From: a virus
Strand: one strand, 5' to 3'
DNA: 64,000 nucleotides
IMG/VR virus record: IMGVR_UViG_3300037420_000246
Coordinates: 3,642 to 67,641 of that record
Of this stretch, positions 2,931 to 53,936 are shown piece by piece. Position numbers and translations under genes: made by a program. Every line of letters begins with the position of its first letter. Positions within the stretch are counted from its first letter, which is position 1. Under the pieces are notes generated by a model, which saw nothing but the letters and a program-made list of their open reading frames with translations, was not told where the DNA came from and searched no databases.

Positions 2931-4301
2931 ATGCCAAAGAAATTAACACAAGAAGAATATCTAGCTAACTGCATTAACGCCCACGGCTCGACGTACAATT
3001 TAGAAAGAATTGTGTATCGCGGAACGATGTCGAAAGTTACTGTCGGTTGTCCAATCCATGATTGGTTTGAAGTGAAAGCCGGATCATTTATGAGAGGGAC
3101 TGGTTGCGCCAAGTGTGCTGCAGATAAGCGGGGTCTTAACAGACGACTCTCAGAGGGAGAATTCTTATCGCGGAGTGTCGCGCGGCATGGACAAGACTAC
3201 GGATACCAATTTGTAAACTACGTGAAGACGGATGTTAAGGTCAAGATTCTCTGCAATCGCTGCGAATGCACCTTCGAGATGACGCCAGAGTGTCATATGG
3301 CAGGACAAGGCTGTCGTGATTGTGGATACGAGAAGAATGGCTTGAATAAGCGCAGCAAGTTTGAAGAATTCGTCAAAGCCTCGCGTGAACATCACGGACA
3401 AAAGTTCAATTATGATGGTGTTGATTGGAGAGGAAATAAACAATCTATTGAGTTGTTTTGCCCTGTCCATCAAGAATATTTCACGACTACGCCAGCACTG
3501 CACGCGAAAGGAGCGGACTGCCCTAAATGCGCTAAACAACGAGGTGGTCTGAAGAACCGCAGTAATACCGAGAAGTTTGTCAAAGATGGAACTGAGAAGT
3601 TTGGAACACGATTTGACTACTCTGAAGTGGACTACATCAAAAGCAATCTTAAAGTGAAGATTCGTTGTGTTACGCATAATAAGTGGCTTTCTGTGACTCC
3701 GAATATGCATCTAGCAGGTTTTGGAGGTTGTGCGGATTGCGCTAAAGAAGCCACGAGTGAGCGTTGTAAGAAGTCAACGGAGCGTTTTGTCCTTGACGCC
3801 ACTAAGGAGCACGGTTCTCGGTATGGCTATGATCGTTCCATTTACAACGGTGCGTACAACAAAGTAGAAATTCATTGCAGAGAGCACGGCTATTTCTGGC
3901 AGAGCGCTGGCGCTCACATAGCAGGCCGAGGTTGCTCTAAATGTGGTAACAACGGGTATAAAGTAAACAAATCTGGGTATCTTTATGTTCTATACGATGG
4001 TGAATTAACTAAGGTTGGCATTACAAACAGGAACCCTGAAATCCGTTGCAAGTTTATTGCTAAGAAGTCTGAACGCCCATTCGAAGTTTTGAAGTTTTAC
4101 CACTTCGATGACGGCGGAGTTCCGTTGAGTCTTGAAACAAAACTGCTGAGTGAGTTGTGGCAAACATATAAGTCTCCAACAGAGAAATTTTCAGGATACA
4201 CCGAGTGCTTTTACCATGTTGACCAAGCCGCCCTACTAAACCGAATTGAATCACTAATCAAAGAGCAACATAGCTCTTACTCCGCTTCACCAGAAGCATA
4301 A
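2931..4301 (+). CDS. Homing-endonuclease-like protein: four zinc-ribbon repeats + C-terminal T5orf172/GIY-YIG-like domain
   Basis: Four ~60-aa repeats each ending G-x-G-C-x-[KD]-C-[AG]; C-terminal GYLYVLYDGELTKVGIT motif resembling GIY-YIG/T5orf172; inserted between tail tube and chaperone genes with its own flanking hairpins. Confidence 0.6.
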   Translation: MPKKLTQEEYLANCINAHGSTYNLERIVYRGTMSKVTVGCPIHDWFEVKAGSFMRGTGCAKCAADKRGLNRRLSEGEFLSRSVARHGQDYGYQFVNYVKTDVKVKILCNRCECTFEMTPECHMAGQGCRDCGYEKNGLNKRSKFEEFVKASREHHGQKFNYDGVDWRGNKQSIELFCPVHQEYFTTTPALHAKGADCPKCAKQRGGLKNRSNTEKFVKDGTEKFGTRFDYSEVDYIKSNLKVKIRCVTHNKWLSVTPNMHLAGFGGCADCAKEATSERCKKSTERFVLDATKEHGSRYGYDRSIYNGAYNKVEIHCREHGYFWQSAGAHIAGRGCSKCGNNGYKVNKSGYLYVLYDGELTKVGITNRNPEIRCKFIAKKSERPFEVLKFYHFDDGGVPLSLETKLLSELWQTYKSPTEKFSGYTECFYHVDQAALLNRIESLIKEQHSSYSASPEA

Positions 4302-5229: not shown

Positions 5230-8200
5230 ATGGCACTAGAGGCAAGCTCACTACAAGTCGTGGTTTCCGGGTCGGGAATCGAGGCGACAACTAAACAACT
5301 TAACGACCTCGCAGCGGCTGGCGAGAAAGCCGAAAAGAGTACAACTAAGCTTGCTCAATCCTCTAAGGATAGTTCCAAAGCCCAAGTAGATGCTGCCCAA
5401 CAAGCTGCCTCTCAGTACAACGCCATCATTGATATGATGACGGAGAAATCCAACACATATTATGCCGACAAAGCTGCCAAAGCTGCTATTGCTGCTCAGC
5501 AGGAGCTTTACGATGGCATGGTAATGATGGATAAGTTGCGTGCCGGTGCTGAAGGTTATTACGCCGATCAGGCGGCCAAGCGAGAGAAAGACCATCAAGA
5601 TGTATTGGCGAAACAGCAAGCTCAGAAGAACGCTGCTGAGGCACGCTATGCTGCTGAACAAGAGCTTGCCAATCGCATGAATGCTGCCTTCGATAAGCGG
5701 CAAGCTCAGACTGAAGCTATGGCGATTAATGCCAAATTGGATGCTGACACAAAAGCTCTGAAAGCCGATGGAGATGCGTTCACAGCTATGCTTAAGACGC
5801 AAGCTGAAAAAGTTGGCTTGACTACTAAAGAACTCCGCGAATATAACGCAGAACAGCTTCGTACTAAAGCAGCACAGCTTGGACTTATGCAGGCAGGCAG
5901 TGAGTCCAAGGATAAAATTGACGGTTATATCAACACCATCAAGAATGCAAAAGGCCCGCACGAGTCCTTTAACCTCCTCACCGCAGGCTCTGCACGCGAA
6001 CTGATGGTGTTGACTCACGAGCTTAGCCAAGGGCAGTTTCAGCGCTTTGGTGGCTCTCTTATCGTGTTGGCAGAACGTATTAACTTCTTGCCTAGCGTGC
6101 TTGAAAAAGCTGGTGCTTTTGCAGCAAGCCTTGGAGTGAGTTTGGGAGTGCTTGTTGCTGCTGTGGCTGCTGTTGTTGCAGTGGTGGGTACAGCAATATG
6201 GACATTCACTAAGAGTGGTACCGCACTGAAAGAAATGCGCAATGAAGTGATTTTGACAGGTCACTCAATCGGTGTTACAGGCGATCAACTGTATGACATG
6301 GCTAACAAGATTGGCGAGGCTACAGGCAAGTTTGGTGCTGCTCGTGAAGCTGTTATCCAACTGGCATCCACTGGCAAATTCACTGCTGACCAAATCAAGT
6401 TGATTACTGAAGCTGCTGTAGGTCTTGAAAAGTATGGTGGTGTTGCAATTGACAACACAATCAAGCAATTCGAAAAGCTTGCTGCTGAGCCGATTAAAGG
6501 CGCTCAGCGTGGATTCAAAGGTGTGTCTGAAGCAGCAATGGAGCTTGATAAGCAGCTTCATTTCCTCACTCCACAAATGCTGGATGAAATTATCCATTTG
6601 GAGCGTATTGGAGATGCAGCAGGGGCATCCAAGAAAGCAATTGGTAGTTTGGCCGAAGAAGAGAAAAAGCGTGTTCAGGAGCTTAAGAACAACCTTACTC
6701 CTATTGGCGTCCTGTTTGACACCATTGCCGAGAAGGCTTCTAAGATGTGGAATAACGTATTCCATAAGAAGTCGCTGACAGAGCAACTGGAAGATGCCAA
6801 GGACAATCTCGCTCAGATTCAAGGTGTGAATGGTGTACATCCTGAACAAACCCACCAAGCCAATGCTATTGCAGAAGTGGCTAGGCTTGAAAAGAAAATC
6901 AGGGATCAAGCTGAGAAAGAAAAGCAAGAGCAGCACAACAAAGAGGTTGCTCGCACAGCAGAATTGGCGCTTATCCATCGCCGTACTCTGCTTGATATGG
7001 GCAAGGATGAGGATACTCTAACAGCACAAACTGCGCGCGATGCAGCAGACCGTGCAGCGATTAAGGCAGCAGGGCTTAAGTCTGAACTATTCTCTGCTGA
7101 AGCAGATGCCGAAGCAATGGCAATCATTGAGAAGAAATACAAGCAGAAAGTTACACCAACTCCCGGCCTTGGTATGTCCAAGGTGAATTCGCGTATCGCT
7201 GAATTGCAAATGGAGTTTGAGAAGGCTTCTTATTTCGCAGATAAGGAAATGAAGCTGGAGCAAGACAAGGCTAAGCATCATGAAGTGTCTGCCCTCAAAC
7301 TTTATAACGATCAGCAGAAGTATTTCAATGATCGACAGAAACTGATTGATGATACAGAGGCAAAAGAGATTGCTGCCACTAACCTATATGACCACGGTGC
7401 GAAGAACAAGGACAAGCTGGCAGAAGAGGCTGCAACCAAACGTTTTGAAATTGAGAAGCGCTACGACATGCTGCGAGGAAAACTTGCTGCTGATCGAGAC
7501 GCCGCCGACACTGCATTGGAACGTGCAAACAAAACTGCCGAAGACAACCGGGAAGAAATGTATGTCAAAGGCACTCAAACTATCAATGCTGAGACAAAAG
7601 CCCTTCAAGACAAGATCGCTGGCTACAATCTGATCCCTGAAGCCATCCGTAAGGCTGGCATCAGTGAGAAACAGATGCAGGACTATTTCACTCAGGCTGA
7701 GATTGACAACATCCAAGAGCGCATTGATGCTCTGAAGCAGTTCGATGGGGTTGACGGCACAATGATGGCGGCTGAAATCGCTCGTCTGAATGCTCGGAAG
7801 AATGCTTTGGATGACAAGCGCAAGGCTCAGAAGGCTTGGGAGGATGTGCAGGCTGGGAATGCTGCCGCCCTTAACACCCCAGCAGCAATGAAAGCCAACG
7901 CTGCTGAACAAGTGAAACTGTGGAAAGACGCTGGCAACGAGATTCAGAAAGCGCTTACACAAGCTTTTGGTGAATCTGGTAAAGCTGCTGGTGAAATGTT
8001 TAAAGCATTCTCGGAAGGCCAAGCTAATCAAATCGATTTGACACAGAAAGTTGCTGAAGCTAACAGGCGCACCGACCTCTCAAAAATTGAGCAAACACAG
8101 CTTATCACAGCCCTGCAAAATCAGCAAGAGCAGAATCAGTTGAACATGTATGGCAACATGGCGAATGCTGCATCACAGTTTTTTGACCATCAGTCTAAGG

Positions 8201-17069: not shown

Positions 17070-17333
17070 TCAGTTGTCAATAAGGTTATCAATCGCTGCG
17101 AACAGTTCGCCTTGTTCTGCAACTTCCTTCGTCTGAGCCTTGTAGCGAGCAGCGAAGTATTTGTTAATGATCTTCTTGTCAAGCTTGTTCTTTTCAGATG
17201 CCTCTAGAACAATAGTCTTCAGGTCTTCTTTCAGTGCATCCATCTCGGCCTTGACACTGATGTAGCGACGGAGGCTATTGGTGAATTCAGATGCTTGGAT
17301 GGTTGCGTCATTGATGCTGATTACTTTAGTCAT
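17070..17333 (-). CDS. Hypothetical protein
   Basis: 87 aa ORF in leftward operon. Confidence 0.5.
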   Translation of the reverse strand: MTKVISINDATIQASEFTNSLRRYISVKAEMDALKEDLKTIVLEASEKNKLDKKIINKYFAARYKAQTKEVAEQGELFAAIDNLIDN

Positions 17334-17342
17334 GCTTTCTCC

Positions 17343-17534
17343 TTAGTTTACTTCTTTAACAATCATGTAACGAGTGCTAGTCAGGTATTCGTTTGCCATG
17401 TCGGTCGGGTTATCCAGCAGAATCGTTCTAGCTAGTTTATCCGGCTGGCCTTCTGGGTAGCCCTTGTCCCACACCTCCACTACAACTTTGTAATGCGAGA
17501 GGTCAGCGTTTTCGATACGTACATGTTTAGTCAT
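17343..17534 (-). CDS. Hypothetical protein
   Basis: 63 aa ORF, tightly packed in operon. Confidence 0.45.
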   Translation of the reverse strand: MTKHVRIENADLSHYKVVVEVWDKGYPEGQPDKLARTILLDNPTDMANEYLTSTRYMIVKEVN

Positions 17535-18095: not shown

Positions 18096-18194
18096 TCTAG
18101 TTCTCCTTTACGTTGTTTGTGTTGCTCACACATCTTGTGTCAACGAAGGGCATTGTACGCTTTGTTATGCCCTTCGTCAACAAGTTTCTTAAAA

Positions 18195-33344: not shown

Positions 33345-34604
33345 TTACTGTATTTTACTTGGCAGGTTGTTGTGTGTCAAGGGGTTAGTGTCAACATTGT
33401 TGAATAGCCACTCGTCTACAAAGTCTACTACATCTTGGTACAGTTCTGGGTAGGTAGCTTCGGTCATAAAACCCTCAACCTCTTGCGAAAACCTAGGAAA
33501 AGTGGCTTTTATGGCTTTCTCCACCTCCCATGCTTGCCGACCTGTCATCTGGAAAATCTCCGTCTTACCCAATCTAAAGCCAGCCCTCCTAAGATTTCTA
33601 TCGTGATCCGTCAAGCGCCTGTCCGGTGCATTTGAAATCCCGTACCCTGTAAAACCGTGCCTGCCTTCTACGAGCAAGATGTACAAGTGCCCATCTTTGT
33701 TTGTATCAAACCCACCCTTAGCACAACTGGGACACCCACTGCAATTGTAGAGGAAAGCGTCAGCCCGAGCCAGCCAGTTGCCATGCTCCTCGCAGTGCAT
33801 CACGCATCTGCTGTCAAAACCTGAATACTCCCCATCCCAATCTACAAACTTGTACTTCAAGCCTCGTTCTGCAATCGTCTTTGTTATTAGATGTTGCCTT
33901 TGTTCGGGCGTCCATCTAAAGTGTGGTCCACACCGACACGATTTTGCCCCTCGCTTTAATGACTCTACGTGCTGCTCAAAAACTCCTGTGCAAACGCCTG
34001 CCTTCACAAAATCATCATTGCTGCACACGGAGCATGTAACATTCCAATAATTTCTTTTCTTTCCAGACCCTCGTAGACTTCTAGAGAAGGTAGTCCCTTC
34101 AGGGTACAACCCGGCCTCTAAAAACATAATAATCATGTCGTCATCAGATTTTCTGTAGCGATCCCCAGTAACCTTTGCTGCACAACTTGGACAGCCAACA
34201 TCCAACAAAAAGTTTGTTACAGTGGTTGAAGCCCAGCAAAACTGACAAGTCTGACACTCCAACTTCAGCTTAGTGGCAACCCCTTTGTATTCCTCTGCGT
34301 ACCCTATAAGTCTATACCCTTTGTCTTCTGCTGATCTTTGGACCTTCACCAACGTCTGTTTTTCTGTCAACCTTGCAAACTTAGAACATCCGCAAGGTTC
34401 AATGTTACGATCAATTATCGATTTTGGAGTTAGATAAATTCCATCACCGAACATTTCAGGGTCTTCACTACAAGTGTGGCACTTCACTTTGTAAATCCGA
34501 TCTTTCTTACCCCGGCGGTAGCCATCAAATGCTAGTATTTCTAACTGACCGTCCTTGCCATAACGTTTTCCTATAAATTTTGTATCATCAAATGGAGGAC
34601 TCAA
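33345..34604 (-). CDS. Homing-endonuclease-like protein: zinc-ribbon repeats + T5orf172/GIY-YIG-like domain (paralogue of 2931..4301)
   Basis: Repeated GCPSCA / GCSGCPSCA Cys modules; C-terminal GHLYILLVEGRHGFTGYGIS motif; same architecture as the + strand gene at 2931. Confidence 0.6.
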   Translation of the reverse strand: MSPPFDDTKFIGKRYGKDGQLEILAFDGYRRGKKDRIYKVKCHTCSEDPEMFGDGIYLTPKSIIDRNIEPCGCSKFARLTEKQTLVKVQRSAEDKGYRLIGYAEEYKGVATKLKLECQTCQFCWASTTVTNFLLDVGCPSCAAKVTGDRYRKSDDDMIIMFLEAGLYPEGTTFSRSLRGSGKKRNYWNVTCSVCSNDDFVKAGVCTGVFEQHVESLKRGAKSCRCGPHFRWTPEQRQHLITKTIAERGLKYKFVDWDGEYSGFDSRCVMHCEEHGNWLARADAFLYNCSGCPSCAKGGFDTNKDGHLYILLVEGRHGFTGYGISNAPDRRLTDHDRNLRRAGFRLGKTEIFQMTGRQAWEVEKAIKATFPRFSQEVEGFMTEATYPELYQDVVDFVDEWLFNNVDTNPLTHNNLPSKIQ

Positions 34605-44731: not shown

Positions 44732-44819
44732 ACAAATCCTTGCGTGGGTTGTTGTAGCAGCCTACGCAGTTTATTTAGTAGTATTGATTTCAAATAACTC
44801 TGGAGGGCTTGCGGCATGA
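44721..44819 (+). CDS. Small membrane peptide (32 aa)
   Basis: Not in track; overlaps both neighbours (ATGAATCTTAA and ATGA); MNLKQILAWVVVAAYAVYLVVLISNNSGGLAA has one TM helix. Confidence 0.35.
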   Translation: MNLKQILAWVVVAAYAVYLVVLISNNSGGLAA

Positions 44820-45444: not shown

Positions 45445-45497
45445 GATTCGATTTTTATAATTCAATATAAATCCAACTTCGATCCCCTCTTGAAACA

Positions 45498-45527
45498 TTT
45501 CAAACCTGTGTCACCAACGAGGGGGCT
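45498..45527 (+). repeat. Conserved 30-nt motif copy 1 (ATTTCAAACCTGTGTCACCAACGAGGGGGC)
   Basis: 28/30 identical to 53225-53254; opens a ~450-bp non-coding island. Confidence 0.6.
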
Positions 45528-45900
45528 TCTCCTTTTCCTGTATAATTCCCCTCCGCACGGCTTTTCTGCCCTGTGCAAATCCCCACAAAAGCCCTTCCAT
45601 ACTTGGCGCAGCGAGCCTGCTTTCGTTGAAAGCAGGCGAGCGTATCCCTGCCTATTTCCAGCATGAAAAATCGCCTTGAAGCATTGTTTTCCAATAGAAA
45701 CAATTCTTATAGGCAAAGCTTTCCCCTCCCCATCTAAAGGGATGTCTTGTGGTAATAATGACAATAATGTGACATCAGACAAGCGATAGCAGCCACAGCC
45801 GTGAGAGGCTACGGATACAGCATATGTCAGTGGTGGTAGTTCACATTGGGGCAGGAATGCCCTGTTAGAAAACCTTGTGTTACGTCATAGGAGCCTCCAG

Positions 45901-46212: not shown

Positions 46213-46236
46213 ATGTATGGGCAGGTGTCATACCTG

Positions 46237-46308
46237 CTACGACAGAGCTTGTCGCAAAATCTACGACAGGGGTTGTCGCTACAGGTGTGACAGAGCTTGT
46301 CGCAAATA
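46237..46308 (+). repeat. Three tandem 24-bp iterons (nnnnGACAGrGsTTGTCGCnnnnn)
   Basis: CTACGACAGAGCTTGTCGCAAAAT / CTACGACAGGGGTTGTCGCTACAG / GTGTGACAGAGCTTGTCGCAAATA; further GGGTTGTC half-site at 46322. Confidence 0.6.
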
Positions 46309-46684
46309 TGCAACAAAATATGGGTTGTCTGGTCATATCGTTTGCTGTGACATTCGGTTACTTTGTGTAGACACGATAACCCATTCATAAGAATCTTACA
46401 AGCACATTCTAGAGGGAGTTACACATGTGAGATTGTTGCATTGCCACATTCCATACAGTTGTCTTGTTGACCATAGGTAACTTCCCATAGCATGATGTAC
46501 AGCAAACGGCAATAGATTTTAGAGCGCACGGTTAAAATTTTTCTTGTGTTGCTGGGAATGTTGTTTTATAGTGTCACTCATGGACAGCAAGCAGAGACAA
46601 GGTGGAATGTCAAGATTGCCCTAGCTGCCCTGCTAGGTGGCTGTACAACAAACTAACTGAATACAAACTTAAGGAGAATTGAAC

Positions 46685-47365
46685 ATGAAAGACGCTACGA
46701 TGACCGCCGTAATCCCTCGCTTTGCACCAATTTCGAACAAGGCAGTGATTTTCCTTCCTGAGACGAAGGAAAACGGCAGGATTGACATGATTACGGAAGG
46801 GCAACGTATTACCGTTGGCATCGACTACTACATGGCTACAGAGCCCCTCAGTGCCGAAGATGCCAAGAAAGTGGCGCTGGCATTTGCACAACACGAGCAC
46901 ATCAATCCTGACATGCTCGTTATTCGTCAGCGTCTGCCCAAGACGATGAATAAACGTCCTAGCCGTCTGAATGACGCTAACCTTGTTCTTGTCCAACAGG
47001 AGCAACCTAAACAAGAAGCTGCACCAAGCTCGCTCGCGGAATTCGCGCAGGCACTACAGGATGAGCACAATCGCCGGCAGGGCGACAAGCAAGAAGGGCA
47101 GAAAGCCACTGCGCATCAGCCAGAAGGCGCTGTTGTAGAAACTAAAACCAAGAGGAAGTACAACAAGAAGACTGCTGAGGAACGTTCACGCCGTAGCGCT
47201 GCTGCCATGAAGCGTTACCAAGAAGAACTTGCCCGCGTAAGCTCGCAGTCTCCTACGTTGATGGAACCTGTTGCAACCGATGCACCAAAGCCTGTCGTTG
47301 ACCAAGCGATTCTTGATCTGGCTCAGGCTTTGGCCCGTATCCTGAAGGTGCCCGGTGCCGTCTGA
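46685..47365 (+). CDS. Hypothetical DNA-binding-like protein (basic helical region)
   Basis: ATG 46685, SD AAGGAGA; 226 aa; Gln/Ala-rich linker then basic segment KTKRKYNKKTAEERSRRSAAAMKRYQEEL. Confidence 0.5.
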   Translation: MKDATMTAVIPRFAPISNKAVIFLPETKENGRIDMITEGQRITVGIDYYMATEPLSAEDAKKVALAFAQHEHINPDMLVIRQRLPKTMNKRPSRLNDANLVLVQQEQPKQEAAPSSLAEFAQALQDEHNRRQGDKQEGQKATAHQPEGAVVETKTKRKYNKKTAEERSRRSAAAMKRYQEELARVSSQSPTLMEPVATDAPKPVVDQAILDLAQALARILKVPGAV

Positions 47366-51531: not shown

Positions 51532-52653
51532 ATGAGAAACTTGCTTTTAAGTGCATCCGTTGCGGCTTGCCTTTTAGCCTGTGGTGCGCGTGATGCCGGA
51601 ATTACTACTGCCTCTAGCACGCCCGCAGTATATCTCACAGGTGCAACGCTGTTCAAGGCTGGTTATTCGTTGCCTGTAGGAGCGCAAAGCTTAACAACAG
51701 GTAGTGGCTTTCGGTATTCAGTTGGTGTCAATGCAGACACTGGCTATTACGTCCTGTGCGGGAAACGTGGTAATGCTGAAGAAAAATGCTTGCCAATCGT
51801 TCCTGTCAAACTGATGCAAGGAATTTCTGTTCGTGCAGATATAGCGCTAGATGGGGAATCGCCCGTTGTCTGGTTTGAACAAAGCGAAAACCTAACGCCC
51901 GATGCAAGCGCTCGTCAATCGTTCGCCATAGGCGTATTTAATGAGCGCTTTTGGGATGTGTTAGAGCAATTCAATAGCGCCAATGTGGCAATGCCTACGA
52001 ATGCTGCAATGCGAAGCGGTCGGGAATCACGCACTGCGCCCCAAAAAGACGACTCAGGAAGTTCCGGCGAATCTGCCGACCCTGCCTCTGGTAGAACGCC
52101 ATACATGCAAACGGTTGATGTCCCCGGCGAGCGACCTGATCCTGAATATCCGTCGCCATATGATCCGCTACCGCCTCCCGATCTTTCGCCAACAGATAAT
52201 CCCGGCTCTAGTGGCGGGGAGGACCCCGGCAATGCATATTCTGATGAAAACCGTTATGAACGAATGGCTGCAAACTGTTTGCCCGCACCGGGCCGTCCTG
52301 CTGCAATAGCGTGCGTGTATGTTCCCGGTAAGCGGCCTCCGCCAATAGACCCGCTCAACCCACCTACAACTGATGTCCCACCACCACCGGGAAGCCACCC
52401 TGAATACGACTGGTGCGGCCTGTTGGGGATCGGTTGCACCGTGGGAGGGCAGCGCCCACCTGATCCGTCTGAGGATATACGGCGTGCAATGTGCAATAGT
52501 CGCTATATCGTCAAAGGTGCAGTGTGCGTGTATAAGCGTCTGATTGGCGAGTTTAACGAAATTGACGAGCAAAAATGTTTGGACATGCAATATAACGCGC
52601 TCGGACAATGCCTGACGAAAGAAACACCATTACTCGCGCCAGCGAAGCAATAG
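51532..52653 (+). CDS. Lipoprotein, Pro-rich linker and Cys-rich C-terminal domain (candidate superinfection-exclusion/surface protein)
   Basis: Signal peptide with lipobox LLAC (MRNLLLSASVAACLLACGA); proline-rich middle; GC-rich gene. Confidence 0.6.
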   Translation: MRNLLLSASVAACLLACGARDAGITTASSTPAVYLTGATLFKAGYSLPVGAQSLTTGSGFRYSVGVNADTGYYVLCGKRGNAEEKCLPIVPVKLMQGISVRADIALDGESPVVWFEQSENLTPDASARQSFAIGVFNERFWDVLEQFNSANVAMPTNAAMRSGRESRTAPQKDDSGSSGESADPASGRTPYMQTVDVPGERPDPEYPSPYDPLPPPDLSPTDNPGSSGGEDPGNAYSDENRYERMAANCLPAPGRPAAIACVYVPGKRPPPIDPLNPPTTDVPPPPGSHPEYDWCGLLGIGCTVGGQRPPDPSEDIRRAMCNSRYIVKGAVCVYKRLIGEFNEIDEQKCLDMQYNALGQCLTKETPLLAPAKQ

Positions 52654-52992: not shown

Positions 52993-53166
52993 ATGGAATA
53001 CCACCAAATCAAAGAAGGAATGCAAGTACTCGACAAACTCCCTCAGTTTGGATATGGTGAAGTTGTTAAGGTGAACAAGACAACTGTGTGGGTGAAGTTT
53101 TATAACTACCGTGACAAGCTAATCATTTACGACTTGGACCATATTCAGTTTTTGGAGAGGGTGTAA
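52993..53166 (+). CDS. Hypothetical small protein (57 aa)
   Basis: ATG 52993 with SD GAGGAAG; track ORF 52960 begins inside upstream gene. Confidence 0.4.
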   Translation: MEYHQIKEGMQVLDKLPQFGYGEVVKVNKTTVWVKFYNYRDKLIIYDLDHIQFLERV

Positions 53167-53224
53167 AGTTCATTTCCAAACTGTATAAAATTCTAGGAAA
53201 TGAATCTGGATTCCTTTGCCGATA

Positions 53225-53254
53225 ATTTCAAACCTATGTGACCAACGAGGGGGC
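53225..53254 (+). repeat. Conserved 30-nt motif copy 2 (ATTTCAAACCTATGTGACCAACGAGGGGGC)
   Basis: 28/30 identical to 45498-45527; opens a second ~440-bp non-coding island. Confidence 0.6.
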
Positions 53255-53535
53255 ATGTGAATCCCCTGAAGCTGTCAGAGACAAGGCTTTTCTAGGGACA
53301 TGCAGCATTTGTAGAGGGGCTGGCGAGAGCAGCCCTTTTGTTTGCCTGTAAAGCTGCGGATAGAATGCATGTTTGCTCTGGCTAGGGCTTATCGGCAGGC
53401 TTTACAGGGATTGTCTGTAGCTCCGATGTGTCTAGTATGAGGCAGGAGGGAGGCTTACGAACGGCAGGAACACTAATAAAAACAACGAGATAAGTGTTAT
53501 ATACAACTATTTTCTAACTTTCTTGCTACTTTCTC

Positions 53536-53564
53536 TTGACTCTGCCTGTTAGCTGGCCTAAGAT
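53536..53564 (+). promoter_or_regulatory. Promoter TTCTCTTGACTC-N17-TAAGAT
   Basis: TTGACT 53536-53541, 17-nt spacer, TAAGAT 53559-53564; 40 nt upstream of gene 53604. Confidence 0.45.
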
Positions 53565-53603
53565 GGACACATCAAACATACATTCTTACGGAGGGATGCA
53601 AGC

Positions 53604-53936
53604 ATGACACACAAGGAATTTCAAGCAATCTTGCAGCGTGCTATTTCATCCGGTGCCATCCACCATGCGGCGCAATTGATGAACACTGGTAATTTTAAAA
53701 AGCTTGAGGGCATCACCGTCGGAAACATGGGTGACATCACATATGCGAATCCGGACAAGCTGAACATTCGCGCACATGCTAGCAAGAAAGCTCGCATCAC
53801 TCACAAATTTGTATTGTTCTACACCTACCAAGGGCAACACAAAGTAATCTCGGCTGGCAGTCTTGAAAGCATTGCCGGATATGTCGAATATAGAGAGCGT
53901 ATCTATGCATTCGAAACAGAAACCTTTGGGGTCTAA
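53604..53936 (+). CDS. Hypothetical protein
   Basis: 110 aa; SD GGAGGG. Confidence 0.55.
   Translation: MTHKEFQAILQRAISSGAIHHAAQLMNTGNFKKLEGITVGNMGDITYANPDKLNIRAHASKKARITHKFVLFYTYQGQHKVISAGSLESIAGYVEYRERIYAFETETFGV

Follow-up and report, generated by a model that had tools for sequence, protein, structure and literature searches.

Island 2, the non-coding stretch at positions 53167–53603, contains a short sequence core that has one orientation, recurs elsewhere in the same phage and is retained in the intergenic gaps of distant relatives. Sequence comparison shows that this core is a genuine regulatory signal, conserved within the clade and specific to it, whose general kind is known and which lies within an ordinary terminator-plus-promoter spacer. 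We propose that island 2 would combine several regulatory elements in the spacer that separates two transcription units of the small-gene (early-type) region, and that the core would act as a cis-acting transcription signal on the gene strand, most likely as a promoter.

The window, the whole stretch of 64,000 nt (64 kb) that we analysed, holds a tailed-phage genome in which the plus strand carries tape measure and tail genes as far as ~16.4 kb and the minus strand the replication and nucleotide-metabolism genes as far as ~44.1 kb. The polymerase of the phage has its best matches in Manatee Spring virus (63%), Limnohabitans phage DC31 (60%) and Curvibacter phage P26059A (55%); the minus-strand replication set also includes a DnaB-type helicase, ribonucleotide reductase and ThyX. 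A long plus-strand array of small genes opens at the strong divergent promoter pair 44121/44190. Its largest gaps are island 1 (45445–45900) and island 2, and at least five strong intrinsic terminators are arranged in series in this region. A very strong terminator with a 13-bp stem (44740–44779) lies directly 3′ of the first small-gene-region gene. ORFs exceeding 350 aa are assigned to the tape measure protein, tail, a polymerase B-like protein, helicase, ribonucleotide reductase, endonucleases and a 373-aa orphan. The proteins neighbouring the islands are orphans; the 373-aa neighbour (51532–52653) has no protein match among GenBank phages. Neither a Sigma70_r2/r4 nor an RNA polymerase domain was detected in ~85 window proteins. 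A reverse transcriptase domain was likewise not found in window proteins, a Q-like gene was not found and there is no transposase near the core copies.

Several observations concern other parts of the window. The gene at 46679–47365 (+) encodes a 228-aa protein, residues ~148–191 of which match bS21 (PDB 6v39 chain u, E = 1.4e-4); several further S21 chains give weaker matches, and Pfam and PHROG give none. The protein appears to join an S21-like domain, encoded by the phage, to an unassigned N-terminal part. The preceding ~470 nt (46213–46678), without a called gene in the sister contig L012, have a TTGACC-N18-CATGAT site. Two large HNH-type endonuclease genes, at 2931–4301 (+) in the structural module and at 33345–34604 (−) in the replication module (PHROG 681/559), are likely free-standing homing endonucleases.

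Island 2 is closed in all frames, as the preliminary description had stated: no ORF of 60 aa or more overlaps it, the longest ones comprising 37, 32 and 31 aa. The elements listed there were all located and, together with those found here and the island 1 copy, are as follows.

53169..53204 (+): perfect 9-bp inverted repeat TTCATTTCC / GGAAATGAA, flanking the TGTATAAAATTCT box (53182–53194)
53184–53194: TATAAAATTCT box
53219..53226 (+): upstream block CCGATAAT at a −35-like position, from ungapped anchored alignments
53225..53254 (+): 30-mer; its conserved core is 53234–53254, CTATGTGACCAACGAGGGGGC
53247..53267 (+): stem-loop starting in the G-run, AGGGGG 53248–53253, 8-nt loop, TCCCCT 53262–53267
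53282..53293 (+): CAAGGCTTTTCT, collinear with CACGGCTTTTCT of island 1 (45556–45567)
53285–53293: GGCTTTTCT
53314..53343 (+): intrinsic terminator, stem GGGGCTG / CAGCCC(T), loop GCGAGAG, then TTTTGTTT
53345..53408 (+): perfect 10-bp inverted repeat CCTGTAAAGC / GCTTTACAGG, arms 44 nt apart
53536..53564 (+): sigma-70-type promoter TTGACT-N17-TAAGAT, a consensus match
45491..45553 (+): island 1 copy, upstream block TGAAACAT 45491–45498, core 45506–45526

The 9-bp inverted repeat directly follows the stop codon of ORF 52993–53166. The ATAAAATTCT box is not island-specific, being found also ahead of the TTGACA-type promoters 50190, 55170 and 55440, and can be regarded as a general upstream feature of such promoters in this phage; the sigma-70-type promoters of the small-gene region (50190, 55170, 55440, 53536 and 55450) have an A-rich AATAAAATTCT upstream box in common. 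The predicted terminator at 53314–53343 consists of a G+C-rich stem-loop followed by a T-run, with a ΔG of ~−13 kcal/mol in our custom scan and folds, and is the sole canonical one that the custom scan revealed within 420 nt of any copy of the core in the clade loci scanned. A consensus terminator scan overlooked it, probably because G–T pairing carried the stem into the T-run. The promoter with which the island was said to end is indeed present at 53536–53564. By consensus match it agrees at 9 of 12 positions and lies 40 nt ahead of the ATG at 53604, with a ribosome-binding site GGAGGG (53590–53595) in between; the window phage uses strong Shine-Dalgarno sites. This promoter is predicted to serve the next operon, and a relative (L021) has an analogous layout with TTGACA-N17-TAGAAT before the homologous gene. 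Promoters 53536 and 55450 have TTGACW-N4-CTGTTAG exactly in common, which suggests a common regulator half-site; GTTAGT also builds palindromes in L025, a contig of the same phage. We rejected GGCAGGAA and CTGTTAG as iterons (no enrichment) and a long-range closing stem TGCCGATAA/TTATCGGCA, which is confined to island 2.

The claim that islands 1 and 2 share a 30-mer holds. Nucleotides 53225–53254 recur at 45497–45526 on the same strand with 28 of 30 identities (2 mismatches), the sole other match in 64 kb, and 0 of 100 shuffles gave any. The GGCTTTTCT segment, also described as recurrent, is present in both islands and is noteworthy only through its collinearity: the best local alignment outside the 30-mer is the 12-mer CAMGGCTTTTCT (11/12) at 45556 and 53282, at offsets of +27 and +29 past the 30-mer. 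Beyond the 30-mer the two islands reach a local score of 19, compared to a shuffled mean of 18.3, and 124 of 300 shuffles score as high. The rest of the islands thus aligns like shuffled sequence, and the islands therefore have a short signal (30-mer plus 12-mer) in common and do not represent two diverged 435-bp copies of one element, as had been suggested. The 12-mer CAAGGCTTTTCT/CACGGCTTTTCT is absent from other lineages. Within the 30-mer, constraint acts on the 3′ two-thirds, CYNTGTGRYCAAC-GAGGGGG, and the 5′ third, ATTTCAAACC, is confined to the window phage. We discarded a coding role: small ORFs over the core use different frames in islands 1 and 2, the only shared frame has stops in several copies, and the minus-strand ORF 45462–45782 is truncated and shifted in the L012 allele. 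Phage copies of the core have no codon-position pattern.

We reached distant lineages of the clade through the proteins neighbouring the islands, namely a 110-aa protein (56% identical in L017/L018), a neighbour 54% identical in L021 and an HD protein (68%, L028). BLAST detects no nucleotide similarity of these loci to the islands. All of them carry the core, TGT[GC][AG][CT]CAA[CGT]GAGGGG, on the gene strand of the corresponding large gaps. The 30-mer is accordingly conserved in related phages as far as its 3′ 20 nt are concerned, in syntenic islands whose neighbour proteins are 54–68% identical, whereas its 5′ third is not. In total, the core is kept in ~11 copies or alleles from four clade lineages (L028, L025, L017/L018 and L021). 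Without exception it occupies the largest intergenic gaps and reads with the gene strand, at positions 50–110 nt past stop codons. Each genome has 2–3 copies, none upstream of structural or replication genes. A C-run replaces the G-run in two copies (L028 island 1 and L021), which still have TGTGGTCAAT or GGGATCAAC. Both L028 islands (7800–7850 and 17315–17365) have an upstream hairpin in common, with a compensatory change (TCCAGAAC...GTTCTGGA vs TCCAGAGC...GCTCTGGA); the window phage is without this hairpin.

Matches of a position weight matrix and an nhmmer profile were confined to the known copies (52-nt nhmmer profile, 1.68 Mb of sequence), and the motif is absent from 79 other phage loci encoding the HD-domain protein. 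Among GenBank phages the island gives no DNA match and the motif was not found, nor was it found in MW202701 or the first 50 kb of Limnohabitans phage DC31. Full 30-mer scans of IMG/VR and metagenomes gave no matches because the 5′ third is not conserved. The sequence occurs in no paper that we found. The sole match of the genome scan, an exact 25-nt match to 53230–53254 in a Saprospiraceae MAG contig (CAYMSC010000371.1, L110:3415–3438), lies inside a 738-aa repeat-protein ORF, where it encodes NLCDQRGGDAD; its flanks are dissimilar, ~0.07 such matches were expected, and we judged it probably a coincidence and rejected it as a relative.

At the strain level the two islands behave differently. 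Island 2 is 100% identical in all of the ~20 public contigs that hold the same phage. Island 1 differs in one strain (L012) by ~40 substitutions and two indels within 45445–45680, the flanks differing by a single substitution; inside this divergent patch the block from ~−48 to +18 around the core is kept, and the 30-mer matches the L012 allele at 24 of 30 positions. Between L017 and L018, divergence begins within the core and extends ~170 nt downstream. Such 17–20% divergent patches in identical or near-identical flanks (45445–45680 vs L012:3862–4100; L017:9010–9180 vs L018), located by the core in two lineages, imply allelic replacement or diversifying selection, not simple drift. A diversity-generating retroelement was rejected: there is no reverse transcriptase domain, and the strain differences are of all substitution types.

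Anchoring the copies on the core in ungapped alignments reveals a second conserved block upstream, which reads TGGAAACC, CGGTAACT, CGGAAATC or TGAAACAT in other copies and is weak in island 2 itself (CCGATAAT). Within the clade, this GGWAAY-like block stands at a fixed distance of 15–16 nt before the TCAAC/CCAAC pentamer, and the spacer ends in CCNTGTG. The hairpin noted previously can form: AGGGGG 53248–53253 can pair with TCCCCT 53262–53267, and in island 1 the analogous GAGGGGG/UCCCCUC stem is built from 45519–45525 and TCCCCTC 45547–45553. In both islands the G-run/CCCCU(C) stem begins at the first or second base past TCAAC. Across copies, the pairing partner of the G-run lies upstream, lies downstream or is absent, so that the stem is missing in several copies, and the loops differ (8–21 nt, UUCG, GTGTC, AACAC). 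A candidate hairpin CCYNTG-N7-CGAGGG has a nearly invariant 3′ arm and a 5′ arm that is only partly complementary; in the covariance check called for by the preliminary description, the fraction of paired cells, 67.5%, equals that of shuffles (244/500), and there is no covariation. Minimum-free-energy folds of the clade copies have no architecture in common. Fold stability gives weak z-scores: −2.2 (island) and −1.1 (predicted 101-nt RNA, which folds no better than shuffles). Rfam gives no match in the whole window at gathering thresholds, the best E-value-mode matches in either island reaching 10–19 bits against thresholds of 35–80, and no tRNA or tmRNA was found. Of the functional element envisaged earlier, the conserved, oriented cis element thus stands, and the structured sRNA family, for which there is no Rfam match, common fold or covariation, is not supported.

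A third copy of the core is located just past the window end of the same phage (L025:7894), and L017/L018 have a syntenic one. On one side of it are the last plus-strand gene and the terminator of that gene, on the other a convergent resolvase gene at a distance of ~570 nt. In both lineages the third copy follows a strong terminator and no gene follows on that strand; it must therefore act autonomously. The island around it (L025:7743–8474, ~3.5 kb past the window end; L017/L018:10334–11138) consists, in this order, of the strong terminator, repeats that differ between the lineages (L025 has tandem palindromes GTTAGTAACCACTAAC/GTTAGTAACTACTGAC, L017 has GGGACAGAGTG twice as a direct repeat), the core, a ~160-nt G-rich block that is conserved between the lineages (21–25 G and 2–5 C per 40 nt) and the convergent gene of a small serine recombinase. 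This third island could be an R-loop-type origin or a non-coding RNA. A replication signal, one of the options raised before, is conceivable only for this copy outside the window, where the G-rich block follows; nothing supports a packaging signal. Gene calls for the resolvase domain fall on opposite strands in L017 (11139–12336) and L018 (11133–12318), two closely related contigs, which may reflect an inversion or an assembly or annotation difference.

Exact-pattern scans uncovered two phage families outside the clade that carry CA-TGTGATCAAC-GAGGGGGC-loop-G(N)CCCCTC, also written CA-TGTGATCAAC-GAGGGGGC-loop-GNCCCCTC. Neither is related to the window phage at the protein level by tblastx. The marine family (L114–L120, L124, L125) has 2–3 copies 590 nt apart with a UUCG loop; upstream ORFs end at a TGA inside the motif and the next ribosome-binding site is ~30 nt downstream. 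Here a 48-nt unit is repeated after three different ORFs, all of which end ...M-stop at the TGA of the unit. In the L121–L123 family the motif lies between a nucleotide-kinase operon and endonuclease plus DNA polymerase, the loop is GTGTC or AACAC and an intrinsic terminator follows 25 nt downstream. The loops of L121 (GTGTC) and L122/L123 (AACAC) are nearly reverse complements, as if a palindrome had been flipped. Perfect 8-bp stem versions occur in both families; nothing is conserved upstream of ~−16 and the upstream block is absent. For bare 18–20-mers, a few chance matches are to be expected in collections of this size, and three singletons look like chance. The cross-family link rests on three extra features, the A before TGTG, the perfect stem and the position at gene ends, and we treat a relation of the clade core to the two outside families as no more than suggestive.

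Because its sequence is conserved without covariation, its spacing is bipartite and fixed, a block from −48 to +18 is kept, the downstream sequence turns over fast and the third copy is autonomous, we regard the core as a signal read as sequence and not as folded RNA. The conserved span of ~−48 to +18 can be read as the size of a polymerase footprint. Among the options listed in the preliminary description, a promoter provides the best fit (bipartite conservation, sequence kept but not covarying, fast downstream divergence), albeit one whose core is not of sigma-70 type. Our preferred, tentative reading is a promoter-type signal composed of the GGWAAY-like block, the 15–16-nt spacer ending in TGTG and the TCAAC/CCAAC element, with a start in or at the G-run. 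We infer that RNA polymerase would start here, that a holoenzyme or other factor would recognise the core and that the short RNA would have a role. Transcription would yield an RNA with the GAGGGGGC...CCCCU stem-loop at its 5′ end. In island 2 the terminator 53314–53343 would halt it ~95 nt later, leaving either a short non-coding RNA or a leader that is attenuated, and the genes that follow would be read from their own sigma-70-type promoter 53536.

The terminator that follows the core in island 2 and, 17 nt past the core, in L021 supports the promoter reading. Against it, (i) the core fits no known promoter class, (ii) copies are few (2–3 per genome) and none stands ahead of structural or replication genes, (iii) the upstream block is weak in island 2 and missing in the two outside families, and (iv) among the clade loci scanned only island 2 has a canonical terminator after the core. 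With respect to the sigma-70 −10 element (A at position 2, T at position 6), the hexamers ATCAAC, ACCAAC and TCAACG lack −11A/−7T; TGTG occurs in the extended −10 register in 6 of 11 copies, again with a hexamer without both key bases. A sigma-70 promoter upstream of every copy was likewise rejected: only island 1 has a 10/12 match, L028 has none, and in L017 there is no consistent site, the only nearby 9/12 match using the TTGTGA of the core itself as −35. Pairing with the 16S 3′ end and sites for DnaA, IHF, CRP, FNR, LexA, sigma-54, sigma-32 and sigma-28 were dismissed by eye, key positions or spacing failing in most copies. As to CRISPR repeats, there is only a sub-threshold CRISPR-DR5 match, upstream of the core, and one genome scan was without an array.

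Known promoter systems resemble the core in part. The RpoE-type ECF consensus is GGAACTT, a 15–17-nt spacer and TCAAA. RpoE/AlgU-type promoters have a similar bipartite arrangement of a GGAAC-like block, a 15–16-nt spacer and a TCAAA-like block, and ECF promoters that drive small RNAs sharing the terminator of the upstream gene (e.g. MicL) are comparable to the short transcript predicted for island 2, which would end at the upstream-operon terminator. The match to this consensus is, however, partial (spacer 15–16 nt; 3–5 of 7 positions at −35, 3–4 of 5 at −10), the invariant GAGGGGG is foreign to it and no phage sigma gene was found. T7-type promoters with a 5′ stem-loop leader (e.g. T7 phi10) are similar in their ~20-nt conserved block ending in a G-run start; the marine-family block also overlaps the 3′ end of the upstream gene, and the transcript would start with a stable stem-loop and then have a ribosome-binding site. 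In contrast to T7-type systems, no single-subunit polymerase gene is found in the window or the examined parts of relatives (the region outside the window being partly covered), and the phage copies are few, with none ahead of late genes. The lambda pR′-6S RNA-tR′ region (Q-dependent antitermination) has a promoter-proximal conserved segment, a short non-coding transcript, a terminator ~100–200 nt on and genes beyond, and its start region TCAACGATGGG may resemble TCAACGAGGGG. Unlike pR′-6S, the phage core is without a −10-like pause hexamer (no final T) and a Q-like gene, is present in three copies instead of one and has downstream genes with their own promoter.

Nearly as likely as the promoter, and likewise doubtful, is a site that acts as RNA in read-through transcripts, where the linear motif UGUGAUCAAC and the GAGGGGGC stem-loop would be bound by a phage or host factor, either for antitermination of the nut/put type ahead of terminators or as an intercistronic processing or stability site. 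Its position on the transcribed strand past stop codons agrees with such a role, as do the intrinsic terminators after the core in island 2, L021 and the L121–L123 family, the usefulness of read-through control in a region with its strong terminators in series, the stem in islands 1 and 2 and both outside families, and the intercistronic setting of the marine motif between the stop codons of three ORFs and the next ribosome-binding site. Lambda nut (boxA + boxB) and HK022 put are likewise composed of a linear motif and a small stem-loop; they precede terminators in early operons, on the transcribed strand, and number 2–3 per genome. The stem of the phage core is nevertheless conserved where nut and put conserve the loop, its partner is not fixed between copies and does not covary, the C-run variants are unable to form it, and the loop sequences are not conserved. 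The lambda hallmarks (a conserved-loop boxB, a boxA at fixed distance and an N-type protein) were not found, a non-exhaustive search having identified no arginine-rich N-like protein; one copy, the third, lies after a strong terminator, and no consistent sigma-70 promoter is predicted upstream of the copies.

A double-stranded DNA site is unlikely by our estimate, be it an asymmetric operator or roadblock of a phage regulator, comparable to dispersed repressor sites, a target of the small serine recombinase encoded nearby, or one end of a small mobile cassette. The conserved, asymmetric sequence in fixed orientation would suit it, as would an imperfect dyad CCCCTTG-N7-CGAGGGG in some copies, the resolvase gene close to the third copy, the strain-level replacement patches that abut the core and the near-identical 18–26-nt cores of phages with unrelated proteins, which horizontal spread would explain. 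Most copies, however, have a degenerate left dyad half, the copies do not adjoin the predicted sigma-70 promoters (promoter 53536 starts 290 nt downstream of the island 2 core), no transposase is nearby, and three direct recombination sites would delete 8–18 kb, whereas the ~20 same-phage contigs include no deletion variants. Mycobacteriophage L5 'stoperators' and P1 C1 operators are also short, asymmetric intergenic sites oriented with transcription, but they number 14–30 copies per genome in temperate phages with a known repressor, compared to 2–3 copies and no identified repressor here. Still less should be expected of a functionless 30-mer, left by recent gene conversion in a spacer that would consist only of the upstream operon's 3′ untranslated tail and terminator, followed by the next promoter. 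Terminator and downstream promoter are indeed ordinary, the syntenic L021 gap has the same terminator-then-promoter layout, and within the 30-mer island 1 agrees better with island 2 (28/30) than with its own L012 allele (24/30), in keeping with conversion. We consider this very improbable because the core is conserved across lineages, including non-syntenic gaps, as the sole conserved block where all other nucleotide similarity has been lost.

A bolder conjecture, which we hold to be distinctly improbable, is that TGTGATCAAC plus the GAGGGGGC stem-loop forms one short cis element of protein-unrelated marine and freshwater phages, distributed by horizontal spread or held by strict constraint, that possibly marks starts for an unrecognised polymerase or specificity factor or launches fast-evolving short RNAs of immunity or counter-defence. 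The strain-specific replacement of ~200 nt beside the core would fit diversifying selection on such RNAs. Should this cross-family link be real, phages of different environments would rely on a single recognition system, of host or phage. If the core proves to be a start signal, as in the preferred promoter reading, it would offer a handle for annotating the transcription programme of an uncultured freshwater phage clade, whose relatives infect Limnohabitans and Curvibacter, and would indicate that each genome yields two or three short non-coding transcripts that evolve rapidly; if it is only a promoter or terminator spacer specific to the clade, it would represent routine regulatory DNA.

Elsewhere in the window, a perfect 11-bp hairpin ACGAAGGGCAT/ATGCCCTTCGT (18133–18178) lies between two minus-strand genes. 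Its plus-strand arm TGTGTCAACGAAGGGC is similar to the core with an nhmmer E-value of only 4, a likeness that may be due to chance.
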